A stretch of 55,292 bases of DNA, taken from positions 1 to 55,292 of the forward strand of contig JBHHUB010000002.1 in the NCBI GenBank assembly GCA_046753625.1, written 5' to 3'. Below, in pieces: positions 21,724-55,292 of the stretch; the stretch's first letter is position 1; every line of letters begins with the position of its first letter. Under the pieces are notes generated by a model that did no database searches, was not told the DNA's origin, and was given only the letters and a program-made list of their open reading frames with translations. Origin of the DNA: Phycisphaerae bacterium. GTDB lineage: Bacteria > Planctomycetota > Phycisphaerae > UBA1845. A program made the position numbers and the translations under genes.

Positions 21724-22104
21724 TGAAGCGCGCGCCGGTCGACGCGTTCCAACGATCTTAAGCGACTTGACCAAAAAAAAGGGTCCATGCGCGTCCGGTA
21801 ATGTCGGTGGGATGGGACCGGCCGACAGAGGGAAGGGAAAGCCCGGCTCCACCTTCGAATGGTCTCAAGAGCACTTCGAACCCGTCCGAAAGATTACCGT
21901 GCACTGAAATGTAGACGTCTGGAGACGCGTGGTGTGTCGCAGTCGCATGCGGGTTGATCGGCGGGCGAGCCGGCACACTCGGAAGCGGGTGCGCCGGGAC
22001 GAGAGTTCGACAATAAAGGCAACACGCTGGTGAATCGAGCCGACTGGAGCAACTCGGGAGCCTCTAGAGCGAACCCGACCCCAACGGGCGGGCCGCGCGC
22101 CGAC

Positions 22105-30259: not shown

Positions 30260-32902
30260 CTAACCCTTGTTCTTCTTGATCAGCCCATCGAGTTGGCTCG
30301 CGAGAATCTTGTCGATGTCCTTCTTCGCGCCGATATTGACGTGGGCGATCTTGCCGTCCTTGCCGATGACCATCATCGTCGGATAGCTCGTCGCCTTGAA
30401 TTGCCGCCCGATGGCGTTGTCATCGTCCATCGCGATCTCGAAGCGTGACCCGACACCTTTGAACACATCGGACGCCTCTTCAGGCGTATACTTCTTGCGC
30501 ATCGTCTGGCTCATGTTGACGAAGCGAATCCCCTTGGCGGCGTAGGCTTCGCGAATCTTCTCGACGTTGGGCAACTGACGCTTGCAGAAGCCGCAGTTGG
30601 GCGCCACAAAATTCAACACGGTAGCGGGATGGCTCTTGAAGTCCGAGTTGGAAATGGGTTTTCCGCCGAGCGTCGTGAGTGAAAACGACGGGGCGGGTTT
30701 GCCCACCATGCCCTCGGCCGGTCGCTTGCGGGTCGGTGGCGTCTTGGCCGCGTAGCTCGGCACCGCCTTGCCGGCAAGTAGGGCGTCCAATTGACCCTTC
30801 AAGCGGGTTTCAAGATCGCCGATGTTTCCGACGTTGACCGCTTCGACTTTCCCGCTCTTGCCGACGACGACCATCGTCGGAAAGCCGGTGGCCTTGTAGA
30901 GCGGTCCGACCGCGTTGTCCTGATCCATGAGCACCTCGCCGCGGAAACCGAGCGTCTTGATCTTGTCCATAACCTCTTCGTTCGTGTATTTCTTGTTGTG
31001 CATGGTCTCTGCGGCTGCGACGAATCGAACGCCCTTGGCCTCGTACTCCTTGCGGATGGCCTCAAGGCGAGGAATCTGTTTGGCGCAGAATCCACAGTTG
31101 ACGGCGAAGAAGTCCAAGACGGTGATTTCCTTCGAGAAGGTATCGGTTCCCAGGTCTTTTTCTGCCGTGGTCTTGGCGGCGAACTTGGGCGCCGGCTTGC
31201 CCACGAGTTGATCGACGGGGCGCTGCCGCGGAGTGGGCGGCTTCTTGGCCTGATAGGAGGGGAGGGGCTTGCCCGAGAGCAAGGCGTTCAACTGGCCGAC
31301 CAGACGCGTTTCAAGGTCGGAAATGTTTCCGATATTGACGGCCTCCACTTTGCCACTCTTGCCGAGAACGACCATCGTGGGGAAGCTGGTAGCCTTGTAG
31401 AGCGGGCCGATTTCGTTGTCGGGATCCAGCAAGACTTCGCCGCCGAAGCCGAGTGTCTTGAGCTTGTCCATGACCTGCTGCTCACTGAACCGCTTGCCAC
31501 GCATGGTTTCCGCCGCCGCGACAAAACGCACGCCCCTGCTCTCGAATTTCTTTCGAATCGTTTCCAAGCGAGGAATCTGCTTGGCGCAGTACCCGCAGTT
31601 GACCGCGAAAAAGTCGATGACCGTGATCGCGCTGGCCAGCGTGTTCGTGCCGATGTCCTTGCCGGCGAGTGTCTTGGCCGCGAAATGCGGGGCTTTTTTG
31701 CCCACCAGTTCCTCCGCCGGACGCCTGGCCGTCCGTCGCGCGTTGCGCGCCGCCTGCGTGCGAATGGGAACCTTGATCGTCTTGAATTCCGAGTCGTCGG
31801 TGTTGATCGTCAGCGTGCGCCCGGTGGGCGGTGCTTCCCAGCCCACGGGGAAGTCGAGCCGGACGTCATAATTCTTGCCGACGCTCTTTTCGCTAAGCGT
31901 GGCGGTGATCGTGGGGTCGTCCACAGGGATGCCGAGCACCTTCATCGGGGTTGAGCCGTAGTTGGTGACCCGAACGATGCGCGATGTGCCCCTCGTCTGC
32001 GAACGGGTGGCGGCCGCCGAAGCCAGACTGATCGTTGCCGGTACAATGTCGATGCGCTTGGGCACCGTCGCCGTCGCCGTCAGCCTGATCTGCTTTTGCG
32101 CTTCGACATTCGTTTTCAACGTGGCCGTGGACCGCGCCGAACCGATCGGCATTTTGGTGTCCAGCAACGCTACGCGAACCTCATACCGGCTGCCCTTTTC
32201 GATCTCGACGAGCTTGTAAGAGAACTTGGAATCGCTGGGCACGTCGAGCTCGAGTTCGATGGGCTCGTCGGTGTTGTTGGTAACCTTCAGGATGCGCTCT
32301 TGCGCACTGTCCCCATAGACACGGCCGAAGTTGGCAGCCGCGGGAATGACGTCGATGTATCGCTTGCATTCACCGGTCAAGGTCAGGCGCAGGTCCGAGT
32401 TGACCGGATCATTGCACGAAATCGAGATGCTCTTCGAATACCGGCCGCGCACCTTGTTGCTGTTGATCGAGAACGGGAAATCGCCGGTTTCTCCGGGCTC
32501 CAGCTTGCGCGGGTAGTTCCCGGCCACGGTGCAGCCGCAACTCGGCCGAACCTTGGTGATTTCCAGTGTCTTGGTGCCCTTGTTGGTGACCTTGAAGGTA
32601 TGCTCAAGCTTGGGGCCGACCCACGTCGTGCCAAAGTTGTGGGTGAGTGAATCGATCGAAAAGATCGGCTGATCGGCATTGGGATCAACTTCCTTCAACG
32701 TACGCGAACCGGTCTGGCCACCACGCGGCAGTTGTTGGATCTGATCCAACTGTATCGGCTTGGGGCCCTTACCCGGCTCCACGCTGAACTTTTTCAGCTT
32801 CTTGGTTTCCTGGGCGAGCAAGCCGCTGGTGGCAAGCAGCAGCACCGCCGCCGCGCCGCCGAGCATGCTCCCGGTCACGAAATGTTTTCTTCGTTGGTTC
32901 AT
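30260..32902 (-). CDS. secreted DUF1573-repeat protein fused to three tandem TlpA/ResA-like thioredoxin domains
   Basis: Signal peptide. The DUF1573 signature VRPSCGCT is followed by further beta-sandwich-like segments. Three Cxx C active sites: NCGYCAKQ, NCGFCAKQ, NCGFCKRQ. Confidence 0.85.
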   Translation of the reverse strand: MNQRRKHFVTGSMLGGAAAVLLLATSGLLAQETKKLKKFSVEPGKGPKPIQLDQIQQLPRGGQTGSRTLKEVDPNADQPIFSIDSLTHNFGTTWVGPKLEHTFKVTNKGTKTLEITKVRPSCGCTVAGNYPRKLEPGETGDFPFSINSNKVRGRYSKSISISCNDPVNSDLRLTLTGECKRYIDVIPAAANFGRVYGDSAQERILKVTNNTDEPIELELDVPSDSKFSYKLVEIEKGSRYEVRVALLDTKMPIGSARSTATLKTNVEAQKQIRLTATATVPKRIDIVPATISLASAAATRSQTRGTSRIVRVTNYGSTPMKVLGIPVDDPTITATLSEKSVGKNYDVRLDFPVGWEAPPTGRTLTINTDDSEFKTIKVPIRTQAARNARRTARRPAEELVGKKAPHFAAKTLAGKDIGTNTLASAITVIDFFAVNCGYCAKQIPRLETIRKKFESRGVRFVAAAETMRGKRFSEQQVMDKLKTLGFGGEVLLDPDNEIGPLYKATSFPTMVVLGKSGKVEAVNIGNISDLETRLVGQLNALLSGKPLPSYQAKKPPTPRQRPVDQLVGKPAPKFAAKTTAEKDLGTDTFSKEITVLDFFAVNCGFCAKQIPRLEAIRKEYEAKGVRFVAAAETMHNKKYTNEEVMDKIKTLGFRGEVLMDQDNAVGPLYKATGFPTMVVVGKSGKVEAVNVGNIGDLETRLKGQLDALLAGKAVPSYAAKTPPTRKRPAEGMVGKPAPSFSLTTLGGKPISNSDFKSHPATVLNFVAPNCGFCKRQLPNVEKIREAYAAKGIRFVNMSQTMRKKYTPEEASDVFKGVGSRFEIAMDDDNAIGRQFKATSYPTMMVIGKDGKIAHVNIGAKKDIDKILASQLDGLIKKNKG

Positions 32903-41156: not shown

Positions 41157-41708
41157 ATGAGAAACGTTCGAGCCAGCCATATCGGGGTCGTCGCCGTCTT
41201 GCTAACGCTTGGCATTGCGGGGCGCCTATTGCCACACCCGCCCGGCGTGACGCCGGTGGCCGCCTGCGCCCTGTTTGCGGGATTCTTTTTTGCCAGAGCC
41301 CTCTGGGCTGTACTGATCCCGCTGACCGCGTTGTTCGTTTCGGATTTGGTTCTTGGGGGGTACGCCTTGCCGACCATGCTGGTGGTTTACGCTGCACTGA
41401 GTCTGCCGGTATGGCTGCGTATGTTCTTGAAGAACCGGCCCACCGCCGTTCGCGTTGGGCTCTGCTCGTTGGCGATGTCTGCGTTTTTCTTCCTGTCGAC
41501 CAATCTGGCGGTTTGGGCGTTTTCCGGGATGTACGTTAAGACCCTGGGCGGTCTGGGTCAGTGTTTCGCGGCCGCGGTGCCTTTCTTCCGGTATACCGTG
41601 ATCGGCGATCTCTGCTGGTCGGGTGCCATCTTCGGAGCCTACGCGATTGTGATGGCGGCGCGGCGCAAGCCGATTGGGCTCTTGGTTCGTCCGAATACCG
41701 TGGCCTGA
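41157..41708 (+). CDS. small polytopic membrane protein (DUF6580-like; function unknown)
   Basis: ATG 41157 after GGGGAG. Five to six hydrophobic helices. The family assignment is from memory only. Confidence 0.6.
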   Translation: MRNVRASHIGVVAVLLTLGIAGRLLPHPPGVTPVAACALFAGFFFARALWAVLIPLTALFVSDLVLGGYALPTMLVVYAALSLPVWLRMFLKNRPTAVRVGLCSLAMSAFFFLSTNLAVWAFSGMYVKTLGGLGQCFAAAVPFFRYTVIGDLCWSGAIFGAYAIVMAARRKPIGLLVRPNTVA

Positions 41709-41824
41709 TTCGCGAACAAGGTGCCGGCTGAGTACGCGGCATGCTTGCTGCGTGCAGCGGGAACCGGTGCGCCGCACGGCCTGAAGCCTATGGCTCGGGT
41801 TCAGCTCAACCAGAGGGATGCCCA

Positions 41825-44800
41825 TTACGGGCAGCCGTCGACCGCGTCGCTGACCAGGAAAAAGTTGACCAGGATGGCGGTAAAGTCGGCCGTCTCCTGC
41901 ACGCCGTTGCCCGTGGCATCGGCCGCATCCCCCGGCGTCATGAAGTTGGACGCCAGGACCGACAGATCCTCGATGTCACAGAGGCCGTCACCAGAGAAAT
42001 CTCCGGCAATGAGGCGATCGGCGCCCGCAAAGGCGACGCTGGTCGGTAGCGGAGCCCCGAGCGATAGCAGTGTGCGAAGCGTGTGACCCTCGTCGGCGCT
42101 GATCCATGTGGCGCCCGGCGTGCTGAGCGTCAGCGTGGTGCTGCCTTGACCGCCTCTGACCATCGGAATGCCGGCATCGAAGTTGATGGCGGTGGTGAAG
42201 GTTTCCGTAACCGGGCCCGTGCAGTCGGTGACGACGAACGTCACCGTACGCGTGATGGCCGTATCGACCGCCTCCAACTCGACGGTGACGTCGAGGCAGT
42301 CGCCGGGAATCGTGGCGGTGTCGGTGACGGTGACGTTGATGCCGCCGAGGCCGTCGTTCGCGTCGACGTAGGTTGCCGTAATCAGGTCGCCGCTGCCGAT
42401 TTGCACGATGCCGACGCCGTCCGTCGTGCTCAGCGGGATACTGCCTTCGAAGACGGCGGAGTCGATCGCGGTCTCGGTCAGGGTGACGGTTTCGCCGGCC
42501 GGCTCGGTCGTGGATGCAAGCGTTACGTCCACGGTATCGACGGCAATCATGCTGAGGTTCAGATCGCAGTCGATAACCTGCATTGCGGCCGTATCGCTGC
42601 ACGTATAGGTGGCGGCGTCCAGCACAAACGTTCCAGCGGATGAACAAGTGACACTCAGCGGACAACCCGTTGCGTCCACGGGGCTTCCCGGGAACGTGCC
42701 GGCGCAAAGGTCACAGGCATCGGGAACGGTATCCCCGTCGGCGTCGGGCTCGCAGTCGTCGGGGATGGCGTTGGCATTGCAGTCCAGACTGACAAACGTG
42801 ACGTTGCCGGCAAGCAGCGAGACATCGCCGGTCGCCAGGTTATGAGCGAGGGCAATGTCCGCGTCGCCATCCAGGTTGAAGTCTGCCGCGGCAATCGCAA
42901 TGGGGTTGTTCGTGCCCGTATCGACGGTCGGTTGGATGGCAAAAACGCCGTTGCTCCTGTTGATCAGCACGGTAAACGTGGTTTCCGTGGTAAAGGCGTC
43001 TCCAGCATTCGAAACGACCAGGTCAAGATCGCCGTCGTTGTCCAGGTCTTTCGCGACAGAAGTCGTCGGGCCGACTCCTGTCGTGAAGTTATTATTCCCC
43101 GAAAGCGTTCCGCCTCCGTCATTGAGCATAATGTGGATGGTGTTGTCACCGAGCGAAAACGCGGCATCAAGATCGGTGTCCCCGTCGTAATCACCCAGGG
43201 TGACCCAGACTGGACCGTTTCCGGCGAAGGGGGCCGACGTCAGCGGTGGCGAGAACCCCGCGCTACCATCGTTGAGCAGCACCTTGACAAACTCGAGCGT
43301 CTTACCAGCCGTGACGATGTCCGGTCCGTTAATGCCGTCCATGTCCCCGATGGCAACCCCTTGGGGGAAGTCAAAAACGATCTCTTCCGTGGTTGTTGGA
43401 AACCCGCCGGACCCGTTGTTGAGCATCACGGTTAGCACAAAGTCGCCATTTGCATTGGCCTTCTTATTGCCCACAACCAAATCAGGACCATTGATGCCGT
43501 CCAGGTCGCCGGTGGCGATGGCGGTCGGCGTGTCTCCGTTGGTGGGATAGACAACCTCGGCGGCAAACGTGCCGTCGCCATTATTCATGAGGATCGAGAC
43601 CGTGTCGCGTCCCGTGGCCGTCGCCAGATCCTGATCGCCGTCGCCGTCGAAATCCGCCATGACGATGCCGGATGCGCCTCCGTCGATCGGGTAGTTCACG
43701 GCTGCGGCGAATGTGCCGTCGCCGTTGTTGAGCAGGACCGAGGTCGTACTGGCCAAGTTGTTACCGATGGCTATATCCAGCCCCGGCATGCCGTTGAGTT
43801 CGCCAGTGACAATTGTCGCCGGGTTGGCGTCCGCCGTCAGCGCAACCGTCGGTCCGAAGTTAGTCACCGGCGCCAGATCGCAAAGATCAGCGGCGCCGTT
43901 GGCGTTGCAATCCTGGTCCCATCCGATTTCGCATTCATCCGGCGTGGCGTTGAGATTGCAATCCAAGGCGCTGAGTGACCAGGTCATGGTTGCCGTGTTC
44001 GATAGCTGCGTGGCGGATCCGTCGATGAATGAGGCCTGAATCGTGTCGGTTCCGGGTCCGCCGTCGCCGGGATAGGTAAAGGTGGCCATGCCGCCGGCGT
44101 CCGTGACACCGGTGCCGCTGAGGCTGACATTAGGTCCGGAGATGACGTCAAACGTCACCGTGACGCCCGACATCGGCGCAAACGGCGACGCCCCCTGCAC
44201 GACGTCGGCGGTAAGGGTGTGGCCGGTGCATTCGGTGCCGGTCGCACTGGTCGGCGAGAGCGTGATGGTCCCAACGACCCAGGTGTGCGTTACGGTGTTT
44301 GAGAATCTCGTGGCGCCGGCATCGAAGAACGACGCCCGGAGCGAGTCCGTCCCGGCCAGGTCGGCACTGGTGTAGGTAAGCGAAGCCACACCGCTGCCAT
44401 TCGTCGTGGCCGTCCCCAATACGCCCGCGTTGGGTCCCGAGATCGCTTCAAAGGTCACCAACGCTCCGGCAATCGGATTCGAAGGCGGTGCGCCTTGCAA
44501 GGCGGTCACGGTCAAGGTGAGGTCATCTCGAACGTTTCCGGTTCCGCCGTCGGGTGAGAGCGAGAGTTGCCCCGGCGCCCAGGTAGCGGTGGCGGTGTTT
44601 GAAAAACGGATCGTGCCCGCATCATCGAAGCTGGCGCGAATCTGATCGATTCCGTCTACATTGGCGCCGGTGTAGGTGATGGTGGCTTCGCCGTTGATGT
44701 CCGTCAGGTCGGTTCCCAGAATCCCGACATTAGGGCCGGAAAGCACCTCAAAGGTGACCGTGGTGTTGGGAACGGGATCAAACGGCGCTACGCCCTCACG

Positions 44801-46924
44801 GAAGGTGGCCGTGAGCGTGTGCTGCGTCGCGGTGGGTATGTTGGCCGATAGGGGTGCGAGCGTTCCGGAGTTGGGCAACAACAGTTGCGGCGTGCCGGCC
44901 AACGAGAACGTCTGCGGACCTTGCGGCACGTTGAAGCCCAGCACCTCAACGCGGTAGACGCCCGCCGCCGGGGCATTGATCACGATTTGCTCTATGTTGT
45001 TTAGATGGTCCGCTTGAGTTTGCACCGCCGGCAGCGCGGGATTGGCCGGGTCCAAAGTCCATGGAAAGAACTGCACGTTCCCCGGATCAAAAACGCGCAG
45101 GTCCAGGTCGTTGACCAGCGCCGGGGTGACCAAAGGCGTACCGGCGACATCGTCCCAGGCAAGGGTCACCTTCAACTGCGGATCGCCGGGGTCAACAACC
45201 ACCAGAATCGAAAAGGTCTCCCCTTGGCTGACCTGATCTTCCAGGAAAGAGCCCGAGCGCATGAAGTCGATTGTGGGTACAATGCGCACGGAACCGTACC
45301 CGCTCTGATAGTCCGGCCCGGTGTTGCCGATGTCCACCGCGTTGTGCGCGAGCAGCGCTTTCAGCGTGGCATTGGTGAAATCGGTTTTGGTCGGGAAATT
45401 CGCTCGGAAATCCTGTAGGAGCAGGGCCGACAGGCCGGTCACGGTAGGTGTGGCCATGGACGTGCCGCACTTGACACTGTATCCGAAGAGGTTCAGGGCT
45501 GTATTACATGAGGTGACACCGTTGTCGCCGCCGATCTGACATCCCGGCGCGGAAATGTCGGGCTTGAGTCGCCCATCATCACATGGTCCCCAACTGCTGA
45601 AGGTGGTCATCGAGTCATCGTTCGCGTTGATCGCTCCGACGGTGATGTGGTTCTTGGCACAGGAAGGCGGCGCCGTCGAGTGGTATCCGTTGATGTGTTC
45701 CGTCTGGCATGTGAGCGTGCACTGGCGTTCGTTGCCGTTGGCCCAAAGGACTCGAAACGGTACTCCCAAGCTCCAGTTTCCGCTGACGATATTGTCAATC
45801 AGCGCCGACGTTACGCCGTAGTCCCCCGTGATGCCGCACGGAAAGCCGTTGCTACACGTGTTGGTGCCGATCGAGTTGTTGGCCAGGTCGGCGCCGTGCA
45901 CCGTAATGGCCTGCGTGTAATCCGCCTCGAGGTCTCCAGGGTTCGTATAGAGGAAGATTTGCGTTCCATCATATTGGAACCCGTAGGACACGAGGTCCAC
46001 GCCCGGCGCCATGCCGCGGTACACCCCGTTGAGGCTTTGCGAACCATCTCCACCTATGGTGCATGCTACGTGGGACGAGTGGTCCGAAGCCGGTGCATTG
46101 TCGCCGAGGGTGATGCGGCCGGCAACGTCGGGATGGGTGAGCCCGTCGTCTCTCATGGCCCTACCCGCGTCGTAGACCAGAACCGTAACCCCCGATCCGT
46201 CGAGATTGTAAGGCGATGTATGAGCGATATCCGCGCCGGTGAGCGCGCGGTTTTCCGCGTTGAGTGCGTCCATTTTGGGCAGCGCGGGTTCGATGTATTC
46301 GACAATGTCTTCGGCCGCCAGCGCGGCCGCTTGCGACAGTGGAATCTCAATGACCAAGCCGTTGACCGATTGGATCGCGTCCTGGACCTTGGCACCATAT
46401 GCCTCGGCAACACCGACTCCCTTCGGCCGCAGCGCCACATCCGGATGAAACAGGACGTAGGCTCCGATAATCGGATCCCCCGGCGAATTCTCGCCCACGA
46501 TCACCCAGGCCGGCGCCGATCCAGGGAGCAAGGAGGCATGCAGCTTCCACGGCGTCTCCACGGCCGCTACGCCGGCGAGCGACGTCACCTCGGCCAGCTC
46601 GGACGCCGCCACGCCCTCTGACGAAACCGTGGCGAAAAAGGCATTGTCGCCGAGGTAATGGAGCAGCGTGACCCCGGCGGCGGCGAGTTTCTCGCGCTGG
46701 GCCGTGCCGATCGGATCCGCGAACTGGACCACGATGTGCCGCGTGCCACGATTCGGCACGAGCTCAGTGATCTTGCTCGCATTTTGCGCGGCTTCGGATG
46801 CGATCGTTTGTGCGGCCCCCGACCGCCATCGGATCTGCAACGGCCGAGCCGTCGCCACGGCCGATCCGCACAACGCAGGCACGATCAGCAGCGCCCATCG
46901 CATGCGACTGAAGAAGTTCATCAT
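41825..46924 (-). CDS. giant secreted S8 subtilase fused to P-domain, 3 Big-like repeats, 7-blade FG-GAP propeller, beta-sandwich and dockerin-like C-terminus
   Basis: Signal peptide MMNFFSRMRWALLIVPALCGSAVA. Catalytic D (VLVYDAG), H (HSSHVACTIGG) and S (GTSMATPTVTGLSA). Three ~95-aa Ig-like repeats. Seven DxDGDGDxD-type loops. Ends GDFSGDGLCDIEDLSVLASNF...DATGNGVQETADFTAILVNF. Confidence 0.9.
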   Translation of the reverse strand: MMNFFSRMRWALLIVPALCGSAVATARPLQIRWRSGAAQTIASEAAQNASKITELVPNRGTRHIVVQFADPIGTAQREKLAAAGVTLLHYLGDNAFFATVSSEGVAASELAEVTSLAGVAAVETPWKLHASLLPGSAPAWVIVGENSPGDPIIGAYVLFHPDVALRPKGVGVAEAYGAKVQDAIQSVNGLVIEIPLSQAAALAAEDIVEYIEPALPKMDALNAENRALTGADIAHTSPYNLDGSGVTVLVYDAGRAMRDDGLTHPDVAGRITLGDNAPASDHSSHVACTIGGDGSQSLNGVYRGMAPGVDLVSYGFQYDGTQIFLYTNPGDLEADYTQAITVHGADLANNSIGTNTCSNGFPCGITGDYGVTSALIDNIVSGNWSLGVPFRVLWANGNERQCTLTCQTEHINGYHSTAPPSCAKNHITVGAINANDDSMTTFSSWGPCDDGRLKPDISAPGCQIGGDNGVTSCNTALNLFGYSVKCGTSMATPTVTGLSALLLQDFRANFPTKTDFTNATLKALLAHNAVDIGNTGPDYQSGYGSVRIVPTIDFMRSGSFLEDQVSQGETFSILVVVDPGDPQLKVTLAWDDVAGTPLVTPALVNDLDLRVFDPGNVQFFPWTLDPANPALPAVQTQADHLNNIEQIVINAPAAGVYRVEVLGFNVPQGPQTFSLAGTPQLLLPNSGTLAPLSANIPTATQHTLTATFREGVAPFDPVPNTTVTFEVLSGPNVGILGTDLTDINGEATITYTGANVDGIDQIRASFDDAGTIRFSNTATATWAPGQLSLSPDGGTGNVRDDLTLTVTALQGAPPSNPIAGALVTFEAISGPNAGVLGTATTNGSGVASLTYTSADLAGTDSLRASFFDAGATRFSNTVTHTWVVGTITLSPTSATGTECTGHTLTADVVQGASPFAPMSGVTVTFDVISGPNVSLSGTGVTDAGGMATFTYPGDGGPGTDTIQASFIDGSATQLSNTATMTWSLSALDCNLNATPDECEIGWDQDCNANGAADLCDLAPVTNFGPTVALTADANPATIVTGELNGMPGLDIAIGNNLASTTSVLLNNGDGTFAAAVNYPIDGGASGIVMADFDGDGDQDLATATGRDTVSILMNNGDGTFAAEVVYPTNGDTPTAIATGDLDGINGPDLVVGNKKANANGDFVLTVMLNNGSGGFPTTTEEIVFDFPQGVAIGDMDGINGPDIVTAGKTLEFVKVLLNDGSAGFSPPLTSAPFAGNGPVWVTLGDYDGDTDLDAAFSLGDNTIHIMLNDGGGTLSGNNNFTTGVGPTTSVAKDLDNDGDLDLVVSNAGDAFTTETTFTVLINRSNGVFAIQPTVDTGTNNPIAIAAADFNLDGDADIALAHNLATGDVSLLAGNVTFVSLDCNANAIPDDCEPDADGDTVPDACDLCAGTFPGSPVDATGCPLSVTCSSAGTFVLDAATYTCSDTAAMQVIDCDLNLSMIAVDTVDVTLASTTEPAGETVTLTETAIDSAVFEGSIPLSTTDGVGIVQIGSGDLITATYVDANDGLGGINVTVTDTATIPGDCLDVTVELEAVDTAITRTVTFVVTDCTGPVTETFTTAINFDAGIPMVRGGQGSTTLTLSTPGATWISADEGHTLRTLLSLGAPLPTSVAFAGADRLIAGDFSGDGLCDIEDLSVLASNFMTPGDAADATGNGVQETADFTAILVNFFLVSDAVDGCP

Positions 46925-47452
46925 GTACTTACCTGACCCCGCTCCCCCGACATCTCCTTATCGCGGCCTCTTGCCCTATCAACAGTGTATCGTACCATGC
47001 CGCAGTCCGATAAATCGCAGACATCGGGGGCTCTGTCGGGCGAACCCGTAACGGTTATCGCCGGTTTGCCGTGTGTAGATCAAACGAGGCAGGTTGCAGG
47101 CGGTCTTGGATGCGCCAAGCATCATGTCCCTCCCTGGCAACCGCTGTCGATCCATCATCGATATCTCCCCAATGCCGGTCCACAACGCCGAAGCGATTGC
47201 GTAGGGGACGCCAGCCCCTCCAGGATCCGACCGCAAGCTCGGGGCAGCCGCCCCGATCCTCTTTCCTCGATTCGCCGATAACGATGCTCACGAAGCCGGC
47301 GATCGGCCAGACGTCCGCATGGCATCGCCTTCCGCGTCGCCGTCTCGCTCGAGCCGTACGCCCCGTGACATCCGTCCCTCGGCGTAGCACCGGCACCCCA
47401 CCCGGTACCTGCGCGCGCTTTAATGCCGCGCTACGTTGCTCGAAATCGTTTC

Positions 47453-47950
47453 TTACCCGCCGGCCAGAAACGCGGCCAGTGCCGCGAAGTCCTCCGCGGT
47501 GAGTTCCGGAAACTTCACTTCCGGTACGCGCCCGACCCGTCCGCCCGCCAGCGCCAGATGCTGCCCGTCGCCTTGGGCGAGGGATTGCAGCGTGTCCGCA
47601 TCGGCGCCGCGAACGCTCGGCGCTCTTCCGCCGGAACCGTCATCCCCGTGGCACTGAGCGCAGGATGCGTCAGGCTGGAAATCGCTGCTGATCGCTTGCG
47701 GATCGCGGAAGAGCCTCGCGCCGATCGCCGCCGCGTCGGTCATCTCGGAAACCCCGGAAAGTTCGGGCACGTCGGCCCCGGCCTCTTGATTCGTCGATGG
47801 TGGGCCGCCGCGGTCTTCCACCATCGTGGCGCATGCCAGCCCCAACAGCAGCGAGCAAGCGCCAACCGCCCCAACACGGGCGATCTTTGTACAGTCCCTA
47901 TTTCGTCGGTCCACGGGCTTGGTCCTTTCTGTTTCAAAACTCCAATTCAA
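47453..47950 (-). CDS. small mono-haem c-type cytochrome, lipoprotein-like
   Basis: CAQCH haem-binding motif. SLLLGLAC lipobox-like signal. TTG start at 47950 is uncertain. Confidence 0.65.
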   Translation of the reverse strand: MNWSFETERTKPVDRRNRDCTKIARVGAVGACSLLLGLACATMVEDRGGPPSTNQEAGADVPELSGVSEMTDAAAIGARLFRDPQAISSDFQPDASCAQCHGDDGSGGRAPSVRGADADTLQSLAQGDGQHLALAGGRVGRVPEVKFPELTAEDFAALAAFLAGG

Positions 47951-48326
47951 CTCGGAGTGGAGAACAAATCTCGAGACAACGGAGCCGCCCTGCTAACCGG
48001 GTGGCCATCGCGGGCTCAACAGCCCGGGCCACGGTGATTGTACCAGTTCCTTGAGCCTCCCTTTGCATAGGCGGGGCGATGCGTGCAGCACGCACGCGCT
48101 GATCCGGGCGCGAAAACGCAGCCGCATCGCATCACTCCGCCGTCTGGTCTATCCGGCCGCCGCATCGGCCGCCGGGTTCATGGCTTTGAGCCGCGGGCTT
48201 GGCGCCCGTTCGGTCATGCGGGGAAGCATCGGATGCGATGGGCACGCCTCCGCTCACCCGCTCGCGTCCCGGTGTGCATGGGCAACCTTGGTTGGCCCAC
48301 GCCCTCCGCCGCGACCTACTCCTTCA

Positions 48327-51300
48327 CTACCGCTTTCTGAGACCGCGGCGACGAAGTGACTTCACCGGAGCCACCGGATCATCGTCCACGGGCACATCGC
48401 CGGCGGCGAAGGCTTCAACATCCAACATATCCACCCAACCGTCGCCGTTGATATCGGCGCCCGTGAGTTCACCGAGCCCCATGAATTCCAACTCCCAAAC
48501 GGCGATCTGCATGACCGGTCCGTCGCCGGCAAAGCCCGCGGTGATCACACAGCAGTCGATGGCGTCGAACTCACCGAAGTTAAAGTTCAAGACTGAAAAA
48601 TCAGCGCTACCGACGAAACCGTCTCCATTGAGATCGGCATTCCAATCCGCGGTCGTCACCGGCACGGAGGGCAGCCCCAGACAGTTGGTGTTCGCGGGGA
48701 CCGGCGTGTTGAACTGCGCGTTCATGATGGCAAAATCAATGATGTCCTTGAATCCGTCATCATTGAAATCGCCCCCGCGAAGCGCCGTGCCGCCCGTGGT
48801 GGAATCGAAGCTGGCGGTGTACGTCGCGCCGATGTCTGTAATGGTCTCCGTGCTAAGCAGCGTATGCAGCCGGTCCCGAGCGGTAATGCATGTATAAACG
48901 CCGGCGGGAATCTCCACCGAGACGCCTGATGCCCTCGAAGTAGCCACGCTCGGTGCTGTACCGTTAAAGAGCATCTGCGCTTCGACGGTTACCACCGGTT
49001 GGGCGGGATCACTGCAGTTGGAGAGTTCGAATGTAATGCATCGCAGCATGTCGCCGTCGGCGCCGGCGAGCTCCACATCGACCAACATGATGTTGGTCGA
49101 TGTGACCTCAACATTGAATACGCAGGGTTCGCCGGCGTCCGTTCCGTTGCCGCAGGCATCCGTAGCCGTGCAGGTCACCCGGCTCTTGCCGATCGCGAAA
49201 GTGTCTCCGTTCACGCCAATCGGCAGCGGTGCGCCCAGGACGTCACACGTTTGGCCTGCCGGGCAATCAGCGGCCGTGTAGCACACGGCACCGGAGCCAC
49301 TGCACAGAAACGCTTCCTTAACGCAACTGACCGCCCTGGTGCCGTCGCAAGCATCCACCGCGATCGGCTGACTCCACGCGATTGCAGCAGAGGATTCACC
49401 CGCGTCGGCATGCACGCTGATGTCGGCCGGGCAAGTGATTCCAAAGTCCGGGGCTATCCCGTCGATGCGGACCGGAGCCATGTTGTCGGTAATCAATCCG
49501 GAAACGCTGAAGCCGGCCGTATCCACGACATTGTTGGGTGGCGTGTGCGTACGGAAGTTCACGGTTGCGTCCGGGTCGCAGGCGGCAATCGCCTTGAAGG
49601 TAATGGCGGCCATGACGCTGCCGTCCGTCGAGGTTCCTGCGTCTCCAAGGTTGATGCTCACGCTGTAGTCGATCGTCCCGTTGACCGCGTCGTGACTGAA
49701 CAGAAGCGGGAACGGGAACAGCGGTCCGGGGGCAATGGATTGATATTCAAGCTTGGTCTGGTCGTAATCCAGATAGAACTGCCCGCCGACGATTTTGTTG
49801 CACCGCACGTGGCAGGCTGCGTCGTTCGCACACGCTTGTCCGGCGTTTACACCGCTGCTGCAGGTGCCACCTACGCATGTCCCGGTTGCGGCGCCACAGT
49901 CGTTGTCGACCGTACAGGCTACACCGTTGTTGACTCCGCCGAGGCAAGTATTGATGGTCGCGTCGCCGGCCATGCCGGTCATGACGACGTTAACAACCAC
50001 TTGATTGGTATTGGGGTCGAGTGCCCCCGGGTCACAGGTTCCGCCGGGGCAATCCAAGCCGTCCGTACAGGGGAGACCGGCGTTGGTGCCGCCGGTGCAC
50101 GTCAGGACCGGATCGTAACAAGTCGTGGGCCCGGCAACGGATTGAAGCGTTAGCGTGGGGCACGTTCCGTTTGAGGGGAACTCACAGACGCCGACGTTGC
50201 ACACGGCGCTTTGGCAAGTCGGGTTCGGGTTCGATGCGGTGCAGTCAGCATCGGCCGCACAGGTCAGGCAGCCCGATATGGCTGTGCCTGCACATGCGCC
50301 GGCAGTGCACTGATCGTTCTCCGTGCAAATCACTCCGTCATCACAGGCCGTGCCGTCGCTGACCGCTTGCGTGCTGCACGCCAGGTCGCATGTGCCTCCG
50401 GGACAGTCGGCGCCAAAACGACACCCACTGCCTGGGTTGGCGCCGCCGGTGCAAATGCCAACGGTACACGAGCCTCCGCCTGAACAGGGTGTGTCGTCCG
50501 AGCAAGGGACACCATCGTTGGTTCCCCCCGCGCAGACGCCGGCGGTCGCATTACAGGTCAGACTTTGGCATACGGGCGCTGTCCCCGTGCACGCGGGCGA
50601 CGAGGAAGTGCATATGCCGTTCGTGCACACATCCGGCAACGTACACGGGTCCCCGTCCGTGCAGGCCGTGCCGTCCGTCTGGTTCGGGTTGGTGCAAGTG
50701 CCGCTTGGTTCCTGGCAGACGCCGATAACGTGGCACTGGTCCAGCGCCGTACAGACGACGTCGTTGCCTCCCGTACACACGCCGGCCACGCACGTGTCGG
50801 TCTGCGTGCAGGCGAATGTGTCGTCGCAGCCGGTGCCATCCGTCGCGTTGGGATTATCGCAGACGCCGACGCACGTACCACCACCCGTGCAGGCCGTGTC
50901 GTCGACACAAGCCGTCCCGTCGTTGGTTCCGCCGGTGCATACGGCGTTGGCGGCGATGCACGTGCCCGCAACATGGCATTGATCCAACGCCAGGCACACG
51001 ACGGGGCTTCCGGCACACGCTCCGCCGGAGCAGACGTCGGCGGTCGTGCAGAGATCGCCGTCGTCGCACACGTTGCTGTTGTTCGGATTGCTGCAGACAC
51101 CGCCGGAGCAGACGTTGTCGGTGCAGAGGTTGTCGATGCAGGTACCGCCAACACCACAGACGGCATCGCTTGAGCACGACAGTCCGGGGTTCGGGCTGCC
51201 GGCGCTGCAGGTTCCATCTACGCAGTCGGAGGCGTTGTTGCAGAACGGCTCAACGACGGTGATGGTGCCCTCGACGTGCAAGGTGATGATCTGGTTCGAA

Positions 51301-51821
51301 GGCGTCCACTGGCTCGGGGCTGCCGTAGTGGAAAAGGTGAGCCGCACATCCCACGTGCCAATACCCGAAACGCCGGCGAGTACGGGGAAGCGCACCAGGG
51401 GGCCGTCGTATTCGAGCGGGACGGATCCGCTCGGGCTCGTCTTGGCCGCATCGTTCAAGAGCGGACTGCCGGTAATGTTGCTGTCTTCTGTCGTGAAGAT
51501 GCCGCCGCCGAATGGATCGGCAAGCTCCGTAATGTCGTTCGCTCCCGATGTGAATTGCAGCGTGCCGGTCGGCGCACCTTGCGGACTGAGCTCAACGTTG
51601 ATGTCGTACCCGGCTGCGTTGGCGTCTCCGGTGGTGCTGCTGATCAGCCCGTAGACATCCAGGTTCAACACCTGGCCCTGAATCACCTGGAGGGCCAGCG
51701 GTCCGTTGGCGACGCTGGTGTCGCCGACGGTAATCTCGGCCGCTCCCGCCGCGCCGGCCCAGGCCAGCAACGCGCCTGCGACGATCAATCGCCGCATCCG
51801 AAAAGTCATTGATGTACACAT
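48327..51821 (-). CDS. giant secreted Cys-rich protein with cohesin-like modules, an HYR-like domain and three dockerin-like repeats
   Basis: ATG 51821 lies 8 nt after AAGGAG and gives the signal peptide MCTSMTFRMRRLIVAGALLAWAGAAGA; the ORF extends to 51929. Many CxDGxxCTxxDxCxxGxC and CxGGxNxGxxCxxDxxCxGGxC repeats. HYR-like ITCPADISVHADAGESSAAIAW...VTCTATDACGN. C-terminal DFNDDGFKDIIDF, DLNGDGFVGSADF, DINGDGWVDMLDV. Confidence 0.85.
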   Translation of the reverse strand: MCTSMTFRMRRLIVAGALLAWAGAAGAAEITVGDTSVANGPLALQVIQGQVLNLDVYGLISSTTGDANAAGYDINVELSPQGAPTGTLQFTSGANDITELADPFGGGIFTTEDSNITGSPLLNDAAKTSPSGSVPLEYDGPLVRFPVLAGVSGIGTWDVRLTFSTTAAPSQWTPSNQIITLHVEGTITVVEPFCNNASDCVDGTCSAGSPNPGLSCSSDAVCGVGGTCIDNLCTDNVCSGGVCSNPNNSNVCDDGDLCTTADVCSGGACAGSPVVCLALDQCHVAGTCIAANAVCTGGTNDGTACVDDTACTGGGTCVGVCDNPNATDGTGCDDTFACTQTDTCVAGVCTGGNDVVCTALDQCHVIGVCQEPSGTCTNPNQTDGTACTDGDPCTLPDVCTNGICTSSSPACTGTAPVCQSLTCNATAGVCAGGTNDGVPCSDDTPCSGGGSCTVGICTGGANPGSGCRFGADCPGGTCDLACSTQAVSDGTACDDGVICTENDQCTAGACAGTAISGCLTCAADADCTASNPNPTCQSAVCNVGVCEFPSNGTCPTLTLQSVAGPTTCYDPVLTCTGGTNAGLPCTDGLDCPGGTCDPGALDPNTNQVVVNVVMTGMAGDATINTCLGGVNNGVACTVDNDCGAATGTCVGGTCSSGVNAGQACANDAACHVRCNKIVGGQFYLDYDQTKLEYQSIAPGPLFPFPLLFSHDAVNGTIDYSVSINLGDAGTSTDGSVMAAITFKAIAACDPDATVNFRTHTPPNNVVDTAGFSVSGLITDNMAPVRIDGIAPDFGITCPADISVHADAGESSAAIAWSQPIAVDACDGTRAVSCVKEAFLCSGSGAVCYTAADCPAGQTCDVLGAPLPIGVNGDTFAIGKSRVTCTATDACGNGTDAGEPCVFNVEVTSTNIMLVDVELAGADGDMLRCITFELSNCSDPAQPVVTVEAQMLFNGTAPSVATSRASGVSVEIPAGVYTCITARDRLHTLLSTETITDIGATYTASFDSTTGGTALRGGDFNDDGFKDIIDFAIMNAQFNTPVPANTNCLGLPSVPVTTADWNADLNGDGFVGSADFSVLNFNFGEFDAIDCCVITAGFAGDGPVMQIAVWELEFMGLGELTGADINGDGWVDMLDVEAFAAGDVPVDDDPVAPVKSLRRRGLRKR

Positions 51822-51958
51822 CGTTCCTGCTCCTTGATGGCCCGGGCCACGAGGCCGGGCTGGGTGTTGCTCCGAGGTTGCACGCGTTCGTGCATTCGTT
51901 TCGTTGAGTTGGTTGTTGGCCAATGACATTCTTGTATCCTTTGTGTTCTGGGTTCCTG

Positions 51959-53347
51959 TTACGGAGTTATGAGCCCCAGCTTGAAAGACGTACTCACGCT
52001 AAAGCGCGCTTCGATGAAATCGTCCGTGGTGACCAGTCGCGTCTTGTTCACGTCAAACGGACTATCGATGCCCACGAATTGAGAAGTACTCACCGCGAGC
52101 CGGACGGCGATGGCGTCGTCTGTCGTGGTCAGGCGGTTGTCATCCGTGTCCGCGGGCATGCTGGCGACGTAGAAGATACAGTTGCCGCCTGGTATGGCGT
52201 TACCGCTGGGCAGGGCCACCGGATTGCCGGTTACTTCCCCATCCAGCGCGACGCCGCCGGCGGAAATCTGCGTGGCGTCCAACGTGATCTTCAGCCACCG
52301 ACGCACCACCGAATCGTCGGCCAGAACGAGGTTGACGACGGTCACACCGCTCGCGGTGCTTACCGTGGCCGACGCGCCGGCCACTACCGCGGCGTCAACC
52401 GGGGTGAACGTGGTTCCGAGGCTTCCCGTGGTCCATTCAAAGGAGAACGCCGCCTCCGGCGTGGTCGCGAAGGTCACAATGCTGTCGAAGGTTATGCGCA
52501 CTCCGGTGATCCCGCGCATGTAGTTGGTGATGTTGCTGCTCAAGGCGGAGGCGCACGTCCCGAATCCGGGGCAGTCCGCGTCGGTTGAACAGGGCAACCC
52601 ATCGTTGCCGCCTCCGGTGCACAGCAACGGTGCTCCGGTCGCCAGGCACGTTTTGCTGGGGTCGATCTGTTGAAACTCCGGCGTTTGAAAACACGTGCCG
52701 CCCGGACATTGGGTCGCAAACGAACACAGCAGGCCGTCGTTGGCACCGCCGCTGCACGTGCCGAACGCGCTGCCCGCGTAGAACAACTCCAACCCAGTCA
52801 CGTGCGGACCGGCAAGCGTACCCACCGTGATGGCGCCCGAGTCGGCTTTGGTCGGCAGGAGCGTCGTGTTATCGGCTGCGACGGTCAGTTTCGTCAGCAC
52901 CGGCGCGGCATCCGCCCGAAAGCTGATCGCGGTTGTGCCCGCAGCCAGGGCGGTAAACGTCAGCGTGGCGACGGCGTGGTCGGCCTGCGTGGCGGCCCCG
53001 GCGGAGTTCATCACCACGACATAGTCAATGTCGCCGGCAACATCCACATCCACGGCCTCGGTCCAACCGATGCCGCCGATCGTCGAATTCGGAATGATGG
53101 AGTTCAGTTGCAGTATCGTCGTGTCGAAGTGCATGAACGCCTGAACTCCATTGATGGGGGCCGAAAGGTTGGCCACGTCCAAGGTTACCGTGACCGTGTC
53201 GCCGACGGCGACGGATTGGGATCCGGCCGCTACGTTCAGCGTAAGATCATTCACGATGAGATTGGTCGTCGCCATTGATTGTCTAACCTCGGATCCCATT
53301 ATCGTTGCGGCCAGCACGATGGCCGTTATCGTCTTGTACCATTTCAT
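51959..53347 (-). CDS. secreted cohesin-like / Cys-module / dockerin-like protein
   Basis: Signal peptide MKWYKTITAIVLAATIMG. Cohesin-like VTVTLDVANLSAPINGVQAFMHFDTTILQL. Two CxGGxNDGxxC modules. C-terminal pair DTDDNRLTTTDD / DVNKTRLVTTDD. Confidence 0.8.
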   Translation of the reverse strand: MKWYKTITAIVLAATIMGSEVRQSMATTNLIVNDLTLNVAAGSQSVAVGDTVTVTLDVANLSAPINGVQAFMHFDTTILQLNSIIPNSTIGGIGWTEAVDVDVAGDIDYVVVMNSAGAATQADHAVATLTFTALAAGTTAISFRADAAPVLTKLTVAADNTTLLPTKADSGAITVGTLAGPHVTGLELFYAGSAFGTCSGGANDGLLCSFATQCPGGTCFQTPEFQQIDPSKTCLATGAPLLCTGGGNDGLPCSTDADCPGFGTCASALSSNITNYMRGITGVRITFDSIVTFATTPEAAFSFEWTTGSLGTTFTPVDAAVVAGASATVSTASGVTVVNLVLADDSVVRRWLKITLDATQISAGGVALDGEVTGNPVALPSGNAIPGGNCIFYVASMPADTDDNRLTTTDDAIAVRLAVSTSQFVGIDSPFDVNKTRLVTTDDFIEARFSVSTSFKLGLITP

Positions 53348-53545
53348 TTCTCAAACATCCTCGTCGAGTGCCCAGACCCATACTCGATTCGGTGTACGCG
53401 ATGACACCCCTGCAGTGGCTTTGTGTCACGATGCGCGACGCCAAGTCGTATTGTAAGATTGCGTCCTGTCCTCCTTGTGTTCGCCGGATGGGGGCGGCAC
53501 CACTATGGCGCCGCACGCCCTGCTATGTGCGACTTCGGTCGGCCG

Positions 53546-54319
53546 TCACGATCCCGGTCCGGTCATCACGCCGCCGTAGAACGCTGCATCAGCCAGGTCG
53601 ATGTCACCGTCGTCGTCGTAGTCGAACCCGGCGCAACAAAGCTCCGGACTCGTCGGATAAGCCGGCGTCTCGCTGGGGCTCATCGCCCCGGTGAAACAGG
53701 CTTGCAACCGGGCGAACTCGGTGAGATCCAGGTCTCCATCGCCGTCGCAATCGGCGGGCGGGATCACGCTCACCGCGGCGCTGAAGAGAAGGCCGGTCAC
53801 GTTCTGGTTCGGGGCGTCCGCTCCAAACACGCGCGTCACCGAAAAGTTTCCCAGCGCCGGCTCGATGACAATGTGGCTCAGGTCCGTCTGGGTCAACGCC
53901 ACAAACTGAAACGTGGTCACATGAAGACCCGCTCCCGTAGCCAGCGCCGAACTTCCAAACGAGGACAACGCCGTATACTTCGCGTTGCCGTCGAGAAACG
54001 AATCGTTAAGCCCGTCCAAGGCCGGGTCCGGAGGGAATCCGGATTGCAGCCAGTTGTAGGGGCCGTCGTTGATCACGCCGAGCAATTGAACCCGTGCCGC
54101 GTCCCAACTTACGATCACATCCATGGCGGAAATCGTCTGAAACCCGCCGTCGGCGGTCGTGGCCCAAAGGCCGATTTCAAACGTTACGCCCGCCGCTACC
54201 GTTCGCGGTTGCGGCGCCCAATCCAAATCCACGTTACTGCCCAAGGCCGGTGTCACAAACGCTGCACCAATGGCAACCGCGACACTCAGGCCGATCGCTT
54301 TCGATATCCCTGCATTCAT
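53546..54319 (-). CDS. secreted cohesin-like + dockerin-like protein
   Basis: Signal peptide MNAGISKAIGLSVAVAIGAAFVTPALG. Cohesin-like VTFEIGLWATTADGGFQTISAMDVIVSWDAARVQLL. C-terminal DCDGDGDLDLTEF / DYDDDGDIDLADA. Confidence 0.8.
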   Translation of the reverse strand: MNAGISKAIGLSVAVAIGAAFVTPALGSNVDLDWAPQPRTVAAGVTFEIGLWATTADGGFQTISAMDVIVSWDAARVQLLGVINDGPYNWLQSGFPPDPALDGLNDSFLDGNAKYTALSSFGSSALATGAGLHVTTFQFVALTQTDLSHIVIEPALGNFSVTRVFGADAPNQNVTGLLFSAAVSVIPPADCDGDGDLDLTEFARLQACFTGAMSPSETPAYPTSPELCCAGFDYDDDGDIDLADAAFYGGVMTGPGS

Positions 54320-54398
54320 CGATTCTTTCCTTTCGTCCTGTACCTATTCCTTGCCACAGCGCAGTGCCGAGAGCCCATCGGCGTGCATCGACGTGCGC

Positions 54399-54416
54399 GC
54401 CGGCGATTGCGCCGGC
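54399..54416 (-). terminator. perfect hairpin after the frameshifted gene
   Basis: GCCGGCG-ATTG-CGCCGGC, about 20 nt downstream of the 54435 stop on the minus strand. Confidence 0.35.
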
Positions 54417-54434
54417 TCGCACGGAAAGGTACGG

Positions 54435-55292
54435 TTAGCGTCGTACCGACCGGGTACGTTTGATGTTCTGCTGTGCGATCTCCTCCTCCGCCTCGATGGA
54501 ATCGAGCTTATCGCTGAACTCAGGCAGCAGCGGCAGGTTGTACTCCCACGCAAACTCACGAATGTCCTTCACGTCCACGAAGCCGTCTTCGTTCAGGTCC
54601 GCCGCGCGGGCCGTCGAGAACGAAAGGCTGCGGGCCGGAATACGGTAGGTCGGCTGACGCCGCGTGATGCCGCCTCCAAACGGATCGCCGCTGAACGCGA
54701 TCGGGCACAGGTCGGTTGCTGACCTGCAGGAAGCCCTGCTGGATCGCCACAAAATCGGCCGTCGCTTGCATGCCGTCGCCCGTCGCGTCCGCACCCACGT
54801 TGTGGTTGGCCGGAGCCGGCGTGTTGTAGACGCTCGCCAGGATCGAGAAGTCGGTGATGTCCACCAGGCCGTCCTGCAAGGCCGTGCCCGCTGCGTTCTG
54901 GAAGTCACCGGAGATCAACTCGCTGCCGGCCAACGTGAGATCCACGAACTCGTCGCCGCAGCCGTCAAAGAGAATCGGCGGCGCCAAACGGCTGAGCGTG
55001 TGGCCCGTGCGAACGCTCAAATAGCCGGCGGTCGATGGTACGCCCGTCAGAACGGTGGTTCCGAAGCCCGTATTGTCGAAGGACACGGCTTGCGTGATGA
55101 CGGTTGTCGGGTTGCTCAGGGGGATGTTGCACTCGGTGATCACAAACGTGACATCACGCGTCTCGGATACAGCCGGAGCCATGTGCGGAATGCTGATGTC
55201 CACGGTGATCGTGTTGGCCGGGTCCGTACCGGCACACACGCCGAACGCATCGCACACGTCCGTCAACGTGCAGGCGTTGCCATCGACACAAC
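54435..55292 (-). pseudogene. 3' part of a further Cys-rich/dockerin paralogue, running off the window, with an apparent frameshift near 54720
   Basis: The frame of ORF 54556..55266 stays open to 55292 (CVDGNACTLTDVCDAFGVCAG). Homology to the protease C-terminus (FLVSDAVDGCP vs FLQVS/ATDLCP) continues in the frame of ORF 54435..54908, which ends with a dockerin-like ADLNEDGFVDVKDIREFA. Confidence 0.55.

Follow-up and report, generated by a model that had tools for sequence, protein, structure and literature searches.

The window analysed here is a stretch of 55,292 nucleotides (nt) from a Phycisphaerae bacterium (assembly GCA_046753625.1, contig JBHHUB010000002.1, positions 1 to 55,292). Comparison with related loci identifies positions 48327 to 55292, on the minus strand, as a conserved and apparently operon-like four-gene Phycisphaerae cassette. 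The encoded proteins carry cohesin-fold and dockerin-type modules, and on balance we lean toward the view that they build an ordered, noncellulolytic surface hetero-complex through Ca-dependent cohesin-dockerin pairs, of the type for which the name "planctosome" has been proposed. An earlier interpretation of this DNA made from its letters alone (the sequence-only reading) had taken these four genes, together with a cytochrome c gene and a gene for an S8 protease/FG-GAP protein, as a single unit whose products daisy-chain into a surface lattice. Its observation and its interpretation each hold in part, in that the unit is smaller than described, one of the cohesin calls was wrong and the idea has a precedent.

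We ran hidden Markov models (HMMs) of the individual modules on all open reading frames (ORFs) of 17 related loci, which are given L numbers below. Genes 1 to 4 keep their order on one strand, with short gaps or overlaps, in 14 of the 17 loci (15 loci when the window is included); the 14 come from several Phycisphaerae/Planctomycetota metagenome-assembled genomes (MAGs) and show 36 to 83% identity to gene 3. Homologues of genes 3 and 2, which encode proteins of 462 and 257 amino acids (aa), respectively, were found only in Phycisphaerae/Planctomycetota MAGs and metagenomic contigs. Profiles for S8 peptidase, FG-GAP and cytochrome c matched no ORF of the 17 loci outside the window, a tblastn search for the cytochrome c in L001 to L008 returned no homologue, and in L001, the closest relative, the place of the cytochrome after gene 4 is taken by an FGE-sulfatase-like lipoprotein. 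Because these three profiles match in the window only and a different gene follows gene 4 in L001, we take the conserved unit to be four genes and not six. Co-location in relatives, which had been named beforehand as a test, was found for the four genes but not for the cytochrome c or the S8/FG-GAP gene, and the six-gene, operon-like unit with an embedded cytochrome c is not supported. Noncoding gaps of 376 and 528 nt surround the cytochrome gene, compared with gaps of 29 to 198 nt within the cassette.

The modules of the cassette are arranged in a regular manner across the loci. Gene 1 begins with a cohesin of the type that we call A and ends in a beta-sandwich followed by a G-type dockerin; gene 2 encodes a B-type cohesin, with or without an unclassified module (the C module), and a Cys-stapled pair of Ca loops; and gene 3 encodes an A-type cohesin, a Cys-rich linker, an Ig-like domain and a Ca-loop pair. 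Gene 4 comes in two variants. In variant I, found in the window, in L001, in L010 to L012 and probably in L009, where the contig end cuts the gene, one to three C modules are followed by a D-type cohesin, an HYR domain and a G-type dockerin. In variant II, one to three C modules are followed by a B-type cohesin; a D-cohesin/G-dockerin protein is then encoded upstream of gene 1 wherever the contig extends there, and several of these loci encode a second B-cohesin protein after gene 4. Both variants were found within one MAG in two cases (L011 and L017 in OFTM174; L012 and L021 in CBDUXT01), so that the window's genome may hold a second cassette elsewhere. In a neighbor-joining tree, 57 cohesin modules fell into three clades that track gene position, with clade A holding those of genes 1 and 3, clade B those of gene 2 and clade D those of gene 4. 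Furthermore, the numbers of cohesin-fold and dockerin-type modules match in every cassette.

In gene 3 (51959 to 53347), a signal peptide is followed by an A-type cohesin at residues 38 to 146 (52910 to 53236) that scores 36.4 bits against Pfam Cohesin (PF00963; cutoff, 24.1 bits), and then by the Cys-rich linker. A close homologue carries the NCBI name "cohesin domain-containing protein." Residues 263 to 462 (51962 to 52561) contain the Ig-like domain and two Ca-loop/helix segments, whose loops, DTDDNRLTTTDD and DVNKTRLVTTDD (starting at 52150 and 52054), fit EF-hand loop positions 1, 3, 5 and 12; the family consensus, DVDGDRKTxLxD and DVDKDGKVxLxD, is clearer than the loops of the window. 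An AlphaFold2 (AF2) model of this C-terminal half (pLDDT, 78) has an Ig-like beta-sandwich and two loop-helix units as assigned by DSSP. An HMM search with this half gave no dockerin match, and Foldseek against the PDB gave nothing significant, the best E value being 6e-3 to Ig-like folds; among these weak matches, a chain of a type II cohesin/X-module-dockerin complex ranked only 29th (E value, 0.075). The call of a dockerin at the end of gene 3 thus stands at the motif level only. The Ig-like domain, recognizable by the motif GGNAVFYVG, is widespread at the C termini of giant Planctomycetota proteins (L024 to L050), and duplicated loop-helix segments, variable in type, came after it in each of the tails read that a contig end did not truncate. 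Two of these (L043, 10001 to 10360; L045, 10001 to 10195) have near-canonical dockerin repeats that are nevertheless below threshold (17.1 bits against Dockerin_1). Two contigs binned as Woesearchaeota also carry this Ig-like domain.

The 257-aa protein of gene 2 (53546 to 54319) yielded no Pfam match above threshold, Cohesin included, over its whole length. After the signal peptide, however, the family profile of its N-terminal module (the B-type cohesin, residues 27 to 186; 53762 to 54241) aligned with the cohesin family of gene 3 at an hhalign probability of 95.8% (E value, 8e-9). We built an AF2 model on 14 homologues (pLDDT, 81) and compared it with the PDB by Foldseek, which returned 67 chains at E values of ≤0.001; the best 50 of the 67 were nearly all cohesins. 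The top chain was 6kgf_C (E value, 4.8e-7; TM score on target, 0.76; range, 0.76 to 0.79), and cohesins of Clostridium perfringens (PDB entries 2jh2, 2w1n and 2o4e) took ranks 2, 5, 6, 23 and 44. Judged from the model, the N-terminal module is a cohesin fold. The remaining residues, 187 to 257 (53549 to 53761), form the Cys-stapled module, in which DSSP assigned a Ca loop-helix, a short helix and a second Ca loop-helix, that is, the topology of a dockerin. Dockerin_1 matched only one of these repeats, at 13.9 bits and below threshold, and a search of PDB sequences gave the EF-hand pair of CIB1 (E value, 0.002) ahead of a dockerin chain (E value, 0.74). As with gene 3, the dockerin call is at the motif level only.

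All six ORFs of the sequence-only reading are present on the minus strand, but the ORF for the 1,200-aa protein of gene 4 extends farther upstream than it gave and the ORF at 54435 to 55292 is not a single open frame. The first ATG of gene 4 (48327 to 51929) is at 51929; the ATG at 51821, given as the start, lies inside the ORF and encodes residue 37, immediately ahead of the signal peptide. The C module follows the signal peptide (residues 60 to 235; 51225 to 51752), and Cys-rich repeats separate it from a D-type cohesin at approximately residues 656 to 835 (49425 to 49964), which scores 26.7 bits and so bears out the mid-chain cohesin that had been read in this protein. The D-type and A-type cohesin families align with each other at 99.4% (hhalign). 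Beyond the cohesin lie an HYR domain (49095 to 49424; 30.7 bits in Pfam) and a beta-sandwich with a G-type dockerin (48546 to 49139; Pfam dockerin at 48585 to 48773). Against Dockerin_1 (PF00404; cutoff, 22.9 bits), the whole protein scores 36.7 bits and the isolated C-terminal piece scores 45 bits. A third Ca loop and helix (48396 to 48455) and a basic tail complete the protein.

The sequence-only reading had placed an N-terminal cohesin in three of the proteins. Two of these calls stand, that in the 462-aa protein by Pfam and that in the 257-aa protein by hhalign and AF2, but the third, in the 1,200-aa protein, does not. This third segment is the C module, for which a cohesin identity was ruled out at the sequence level: hhalign gave 0.3 to 3.9% against the A, B and D cohesin families, in a test that was also run with a 79-segment alignment. 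No Pfam family matched, the sole hit being FlaF_Ig-like below threshold (E value, 0.095; 13.6 bits); a search of PDB sequences with a 32-sequence profile gave nothing significant, and a word-indexed homologue search with the module gave no hit. A full HMMER scan of representatives, on the other hand, defined a family of 70 clusters at 50% identity. We regard the C module as a separate, predicted beta-rich and so far unclassified family. It often occurs in tandem in giant proteins (up to three copies) or as the sole globular part of small secreted proteins, and the latter end either in a Ca-loop pair of the gene 2 type or in an IPTL-CTERM-like sorting signal. Because these small proteins end in one or the other tail, the distribution suggests that the Ca-loop pair may be one of two alternative means of surface fixation.

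Only the 3′ part of gene 1 is present (54435 to 55292), because the end of the window cuts the gene. It comprises, in order, a Cys-rich stretch, a beta-sandwich, a G-type dockerin, a linker, a single third Ca loop/helix (ADLNEDGFVDVKD) and the basic tail KRTRSVRR. The reading frame switches near 54716 to 54727, where one frame runs to ...FLQVSN and another continues from DLCPIAFSGDPFGG; at about this point L009, an 83%-identical relative, has a net 5 nt more than the window, and the gene 1 homologues of L001 and L009 are each a single frame. Either the sequencing or assembly is in error here or gene 1 is a real pseudogene. Once repaired, the dockerin scores 24.8 bits against Dockerin_1, above the cutoff, and 24.4 bits (E value, 2.8e-5) against the NCBIfam model dockerin_GC, with an insertion in its first Ca loop. 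According to the module HMMs, full-length gene 1 orthologues begin with an A-type cohesin.

In all, there are three Pfam-level cohesin or dockerin matches in the native ORFs and a fourth once the frameshift is repaired, and Pfam and AF2 bear out the original reading that single polypeptides combine cohesin-fold with dockerin-type modules. Two 12-residue, EF-hand-like Ca loops with acidic or polar residues at positions 1, 3, 5 and 12, each followed by a helix, are legible in all five C termini for which dockerins had been claimed. The claim itself survives to different degrees, namely, at the Pfam level for gene 4 and repaired gene 1, by homology for the S8 protein and by motif only for genes 2 and 3. 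A loose regular expression for a Ca loop plus helix matched six times in the six frames of the window, and all six matches lie inside genes of the cluster.

By our own reading, the dockerin-type modules of the cassette fall into four classes (two G types, one in gene 1 and one in gene 4, the gene 2 type and the Ig-plus-loop type of gene 3), and the dockerins contain conserved Cys residues. In every complete cassette gene with a G-type dockerin, an extension of 69 to 101 aa follows the dockerin (48330 to 48545 in gene 4 and 54438 to 54700 in gene 1; also in L005, L010 to L018 and L022). It opens with a linker that leads into a lone third Ca loop/helix (ADLNGDGVVDxRDIRAFA) and closes with a strongly basic C-terminal tail (GRKVRSKRRR, for example); in the gene 1 type, an LLPEF-like stretch lies between loop and tail. 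We found neither a transmembrane helix nor a known sorting motif in it. In approximately 600 kb of related loci, G-type dockerins are nearly confined to cassette genes, and only two of them lack the extension and end in ...D.C(P): that of the S8 protein of the window and that of a 473-aa protein beside the cassette in L012. On the presence or absence of the extension, we distinguish "scaffold-type" from "client-type" dockerins.

The S8 protein (41825 to 46924, minus strand; 1,699 aa) contains a Peptidase_S8 domain at residues 263 to 544 (45293 to 46138; 121.5 bits in Pfam), with the motifs VYDAG, HSSHVA and GTSMATP legible, followed by Ig-like repeats and an FG-GAP propeller of five FG-GAP_3 repeats (approximately 42725 to 43834; 99.4 bits). 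It ends in a beta-sandwich and a G-type dockerin (41828 to 42343; dockerin at 41828 to 42022), stopping at ...DGCP without an extension. This dockerin scores only 13.9 bits against Dockerin_1 (E value, 0.06), below threshold, and 19.7 bits (E value, 8e-4) against dockerin_GC. The C-terminal 170 to 200 aa are nevertheless homologous among the 1,699-aa, the 1,200-aa and the partial protein (BLAST E values, 9e-21 and 8e-12), the lower value being that of the last 190 aa of the S8 protein against the gene 1 module, and the dockerin of the S8 protein is nearer to the gene 1 type (36% identity) than to the gene 4 type (25%). From this homology we infer a dockerin. The nearest analogue of the S8 protein, in L012 (10147 to 11568), scores 25.8 bits against Dockerin_1 and is above the cutoff. 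The S8 protease was ruled out as a member of the conserved cassette, as S8 and FG-GAP had no match in the related loci; because of its terminal G-type dockerin, we retain it as a likely client, and it looks like a dockerin-tagged protein encoded outside the cassette. A 199-aa ORF (41226 to 41825, minus strand) begins with a one-base overlap of the S8 gene's stop and has no match in Pfam or NCBIfam.

Between the S8 gene and the cassette lies the cytochrome c ORF (47453 to 47950, minus strand; 165 aa; TTG start), which has a CAQCH motif and scores 29.2 bits against Pfam Cytochrom_C. We ruled it out as a member of the system for want of a homologue in the related loci and judge it to be an incidental neighbor. 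No Met occurs downstream of CAQCH in this ORF, and a candidate sixth heme ligand is not evident. The domain content that had been read as cargo (S8 protease, FG-GAP propeller and HYR), along with the cytochrome c, is above the Pfam cutoffs throughout. Likewise borne out is the reported lack of carbohydrate-active enzymes: Pfam found no glycoside hydrolase (GH), carbohydrate esterase, polysaccharide lyase or carbohydrate-binding module (CBM) family in any of the six proteins, and the sole enzyme is the S8 protease.

Taken together, these features suggest a mechanism in which four Sec-secreted, multimodule proteins, which have signal peptides that we read by eye and each combine a single cohesin-fold module with a dockerin-type module at the C terminus, would meet outside the cytoplasm. 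Specific, Ca-dependent cohesin-dockerin pairs would then join them into an ordered hetero-complex on the cell surface. The third Ca loop, helix and basic tail of genes 1 and 4 might hold this complex to the envelope; the complex would display the Cys-rich/HYR arrays and the C-module heads, and proteins with a bare G-type dockerin, such as the adjacent S8/FG-GAP protein, could be recruited to it. The position-specific cohesin clades and the distinct dockerin classes point to such an ordered hetero-assembly over an indiscriminate lattice, and they speak against the daisy-chained self-lattice of the sequence-only reading. For gene 2, which combines a B-type cohesin with its own loop pair, a self-assembling lattice is possible. 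More tentatively, the cassette might encode the core of a self-assembling nanostructure with three or four orthogonal specificities in a fixed order, in which gene 2 could form a head-to-tail polymer starting from a B-cohesin base, the basic tail would act as a new envelope anchor and bare-dockerin enzymes would plug in; if so, it would be the operon-encoded scaffold behind the hypothetical planctosome.

Several points weigh against an ordered hetero-complex. The pairing of cohesins and dockerins within the cassette is something that we infer; the C-terminal modules of genes 2 and 3 fail the Dockerin_1 threshold, the former fitting EF-hand pairs such as that of CIB1 better and the latter having no significant PDB match; and gene 1 carries a frameshift in the window. 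All relatives are MAGs or metagenomic contigs. Known anchoring devices (SLH domain, sortase signal, lipobox and T9SS C-terminal domain) were not recognized, and anchoring by the basic tail is a guess. The single visible client, the S8 protein, is a nonconserved neighbor, so that a proteolytic role hangs on that protein by itself. The main rival, serious although we consider it somewhat unlikely, casts the products as surface adhesins or matrix proteins that bind Ca and act independently of one another; their cohesins would bind other ligands, such as glycans or host or particle surfaces, their Ca-loop pairs would be structural or envelope binding (EF-hand-like or thrombospondin-like), and the genes would be clustered as co-made paralogues and not on account of binding between the products. 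The subthreshold modules of genes 2 and 3 and the EF-hand pairs at the top of the gene 2 search fit this rival, as do the name of the nearest NCBIfam model, "dockerin domain-anchored," which implies anchoring, and the C-module proteins that carry either a Ca-loop pair or an IPTL-CTERM-like signal. Against it stand the strict correspondence between cohesin clade and gene position in the related loci and the matched numbers of cohesin-fold and dockerin-type modules in every cassette. Moreover, two of the dockerins are above the Pfam threshold, and, to our knowledge, cohesin-fold modules are the only documented partners of the dockerin family (in cellulosomes and in the C. perfringens toxin complex).

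The original proposal of one self-contained six-gene operon, including cytochrome c and the S8 protein, with products daisy-chained into a surface lattice, now appears improbable. The six genes are indeed adjacent on the same strand, cohesin-fold and dockerin-type modules do share chains, and the S8 protein has the C-terminal module of genes 1 and 4; yet the cytochrome c, S8 and FG-GAP profiles are unmatched in the related loci, the gene after gene 4 differs in L001, and the gaps beside the cytochrome gene are wide compared with those of the cassette. The clades and dockerin classes favor ordered pairing over such a lattice, and in cellulosomes a cohesin is not known to bind the dockerin of its own chain. 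That the resemblance arises by chance or from composition, the secreted proteins being rich in Asp, Gly and beta structure and the genome high in GC, with no real cohesin or dockerin behind it, is already refuted. Although some matches are weak (Dockerin_1 in the S8 protein) or missing (the C terminus of gene 3), against this reading stand three native Pfam matches above threshold and a fourth after frameshift repair, a gene 2 fold match to cohesins at an E value of 5e-7, hhalign probabilities of 95.8 to 99.4% between cohesin families, a Ca-loop motif confined to the cluster and conserved synteny. The ordered hetero-complex is the reading that we favor.

The closest precedent for such a complex is the planctosome, proposed in silico for Nemodlikiaceae (Phycisphaerae) from the co-occurrence of domains in one MAG (Andrei et al., ISME J, 2019; PMC6461901). 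It was drawn as a three-protein complex, whose parts are an anchoring protein with lamin-tail, P-domain and cohesin modules, an adaptor with dockerin, HYR and cohesin modules, and M12B and M14 peptidases that bear dockerins. The likeness extends to the same class, to secreted cohesin/dockerin proteins without a link to cellulose, to an adaptor module set that is that of gene 4 (all three modules being above the Pfam cutoffs here) and to dockerin-bearing peptidase cargo, although this is S8 here and M12B/M14 there. Neither the lamin-tail anchor nor P-domains nor M12B/M14 peptidases were found in the cluster of the window or its flanks, and the parts of PMC6461901 that were searched make no mention of a four-gene cassette, position-specific clades, a C module or a basic-tailed extension. 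Both the planctosome and the cassette are proposals from sequence. The earlier statement that no comparable characterized system exists was thus too strong, given the planctosome proposal, and correct in that nothing of the kind has been characterized experimentally. For Cloacimonadota, Williams et al. (2021; PMC8542988) also inferred a cellulosome-like structure with dockerin-bearing S8 peptidases, and a 2024 survey (PMC11557425) lists a member of the PVC superphylum, Limihaloglobus, among "scaffoldin-containing" microbes. What appears to be new in detail is the conserved four-gene cassette, the division of dockerins into scaffold and client types and the unclassified C module.

With clostridial cellulosomes (types I to III), the cassette shares the cohesin beta-sandwich and the duplicated 12-residue Ca loop plus helix, of which two are above the Pfam threshold. 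As in CipA, cohesin and dockerin of different classes sit on one scaffold chain, and the Ig-like domain before the gene 3 loops recalls the X-module-dockerin layout of cellulosomal proteins. The cluster is not a cellulosome, however. It contains no GH, CBM or other carbohydrate-active enzyme, there is one cohesin per protein in place of tandem arrays, and SLH or sortase anchors are absent; unlike those of cellulosomes, its dockerins have a conserved Cys, its scaffold genes carry a third Ca loop and a basic tail, and its host, a member of the Planctomycetota, is diderm. The C. perfringens toxin complex (GH84C and relatives) is likewise a noncellulosomal use of cohesin-dockerin pairs, but there the modules serve to join the glycoside-hydrolase toxins of a Gram-positive pathogen, whose genes are not known to form any such conserved cassette. 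The NCBIfam model NF041540, "GC-type dockerin domain-anchored protein," matches the dockerins of gene 1 (24.4 bits; E value, 2.8e-5) and of the S8 protein with its DGCP end (19.7 bits; E value, 8e-4), both below the curated cutoff of 29; a literature search for the term "GC-type dockerin" found no paper. The general precedent for scattered cohesins and dockerins in bacteria that are not cellulolytic is the catalog of Peer and colleagues (FEMS Microbiol Lett, 2009; cited in PMC6461901 and PMC8542988), which reportedly lists noncellulosomal modules as single proteins, some with both modules.

Cohesin-dockerin pairing is among the strongest of protein-protein interactions, and its characterization has been nearly confined to cellulose-degrading Gram-positive bacteria and C. 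perfringens toxins. For the proposed protein-degrading planctosome, the cassette would provide a concrete set of parts open to testing. It would also illustrate a way for a diderm bacterium to construct an ordered scaffold outside the cell, and protein engineers could gain new orthogonal, disulfide-stapled binding pairs from it. Sinking particles, in lakes as in oceans, harbor abundant Phycisphaerae, so that a protease scaffold on the cell surface would also be relevant to the turnover of particulate protein. Should the modules prove not to bind each other, the cluster would instead represent a family of Ca-binding surface proteins.

The surroundings of the cluster are those of an ordinary chromosome, with genes for histidyl-tRNA synthetase, histidine ammonia-lyase, SMC, an M28 peptidase and a DUF1573/thioredoxin protein, and the GC content is uniform across the window (0.58 to 0.65). 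Scans with Rfam and for tRNAs and tandem repeats gave nothing relevant, and a promoter/terminator scan over 41 to 55 kb gave counts no higher than the shuffle level. Farther from the cluster, positions 14812 to 24141 hold a polysaccharide-synthesis group consisting of GT2, an MBOAT O-acyltransferase, a GDSL hydrolase, GT4 and a weak GNVR chain-length-determinant-like protein. The ORF at 30260 to 32902 (minus strand) encodes an 880-aa protein in which an N-terminal DUF1573/HYDIN-like Ig domain is followed by three thioredoxin/AhpC-like domains.

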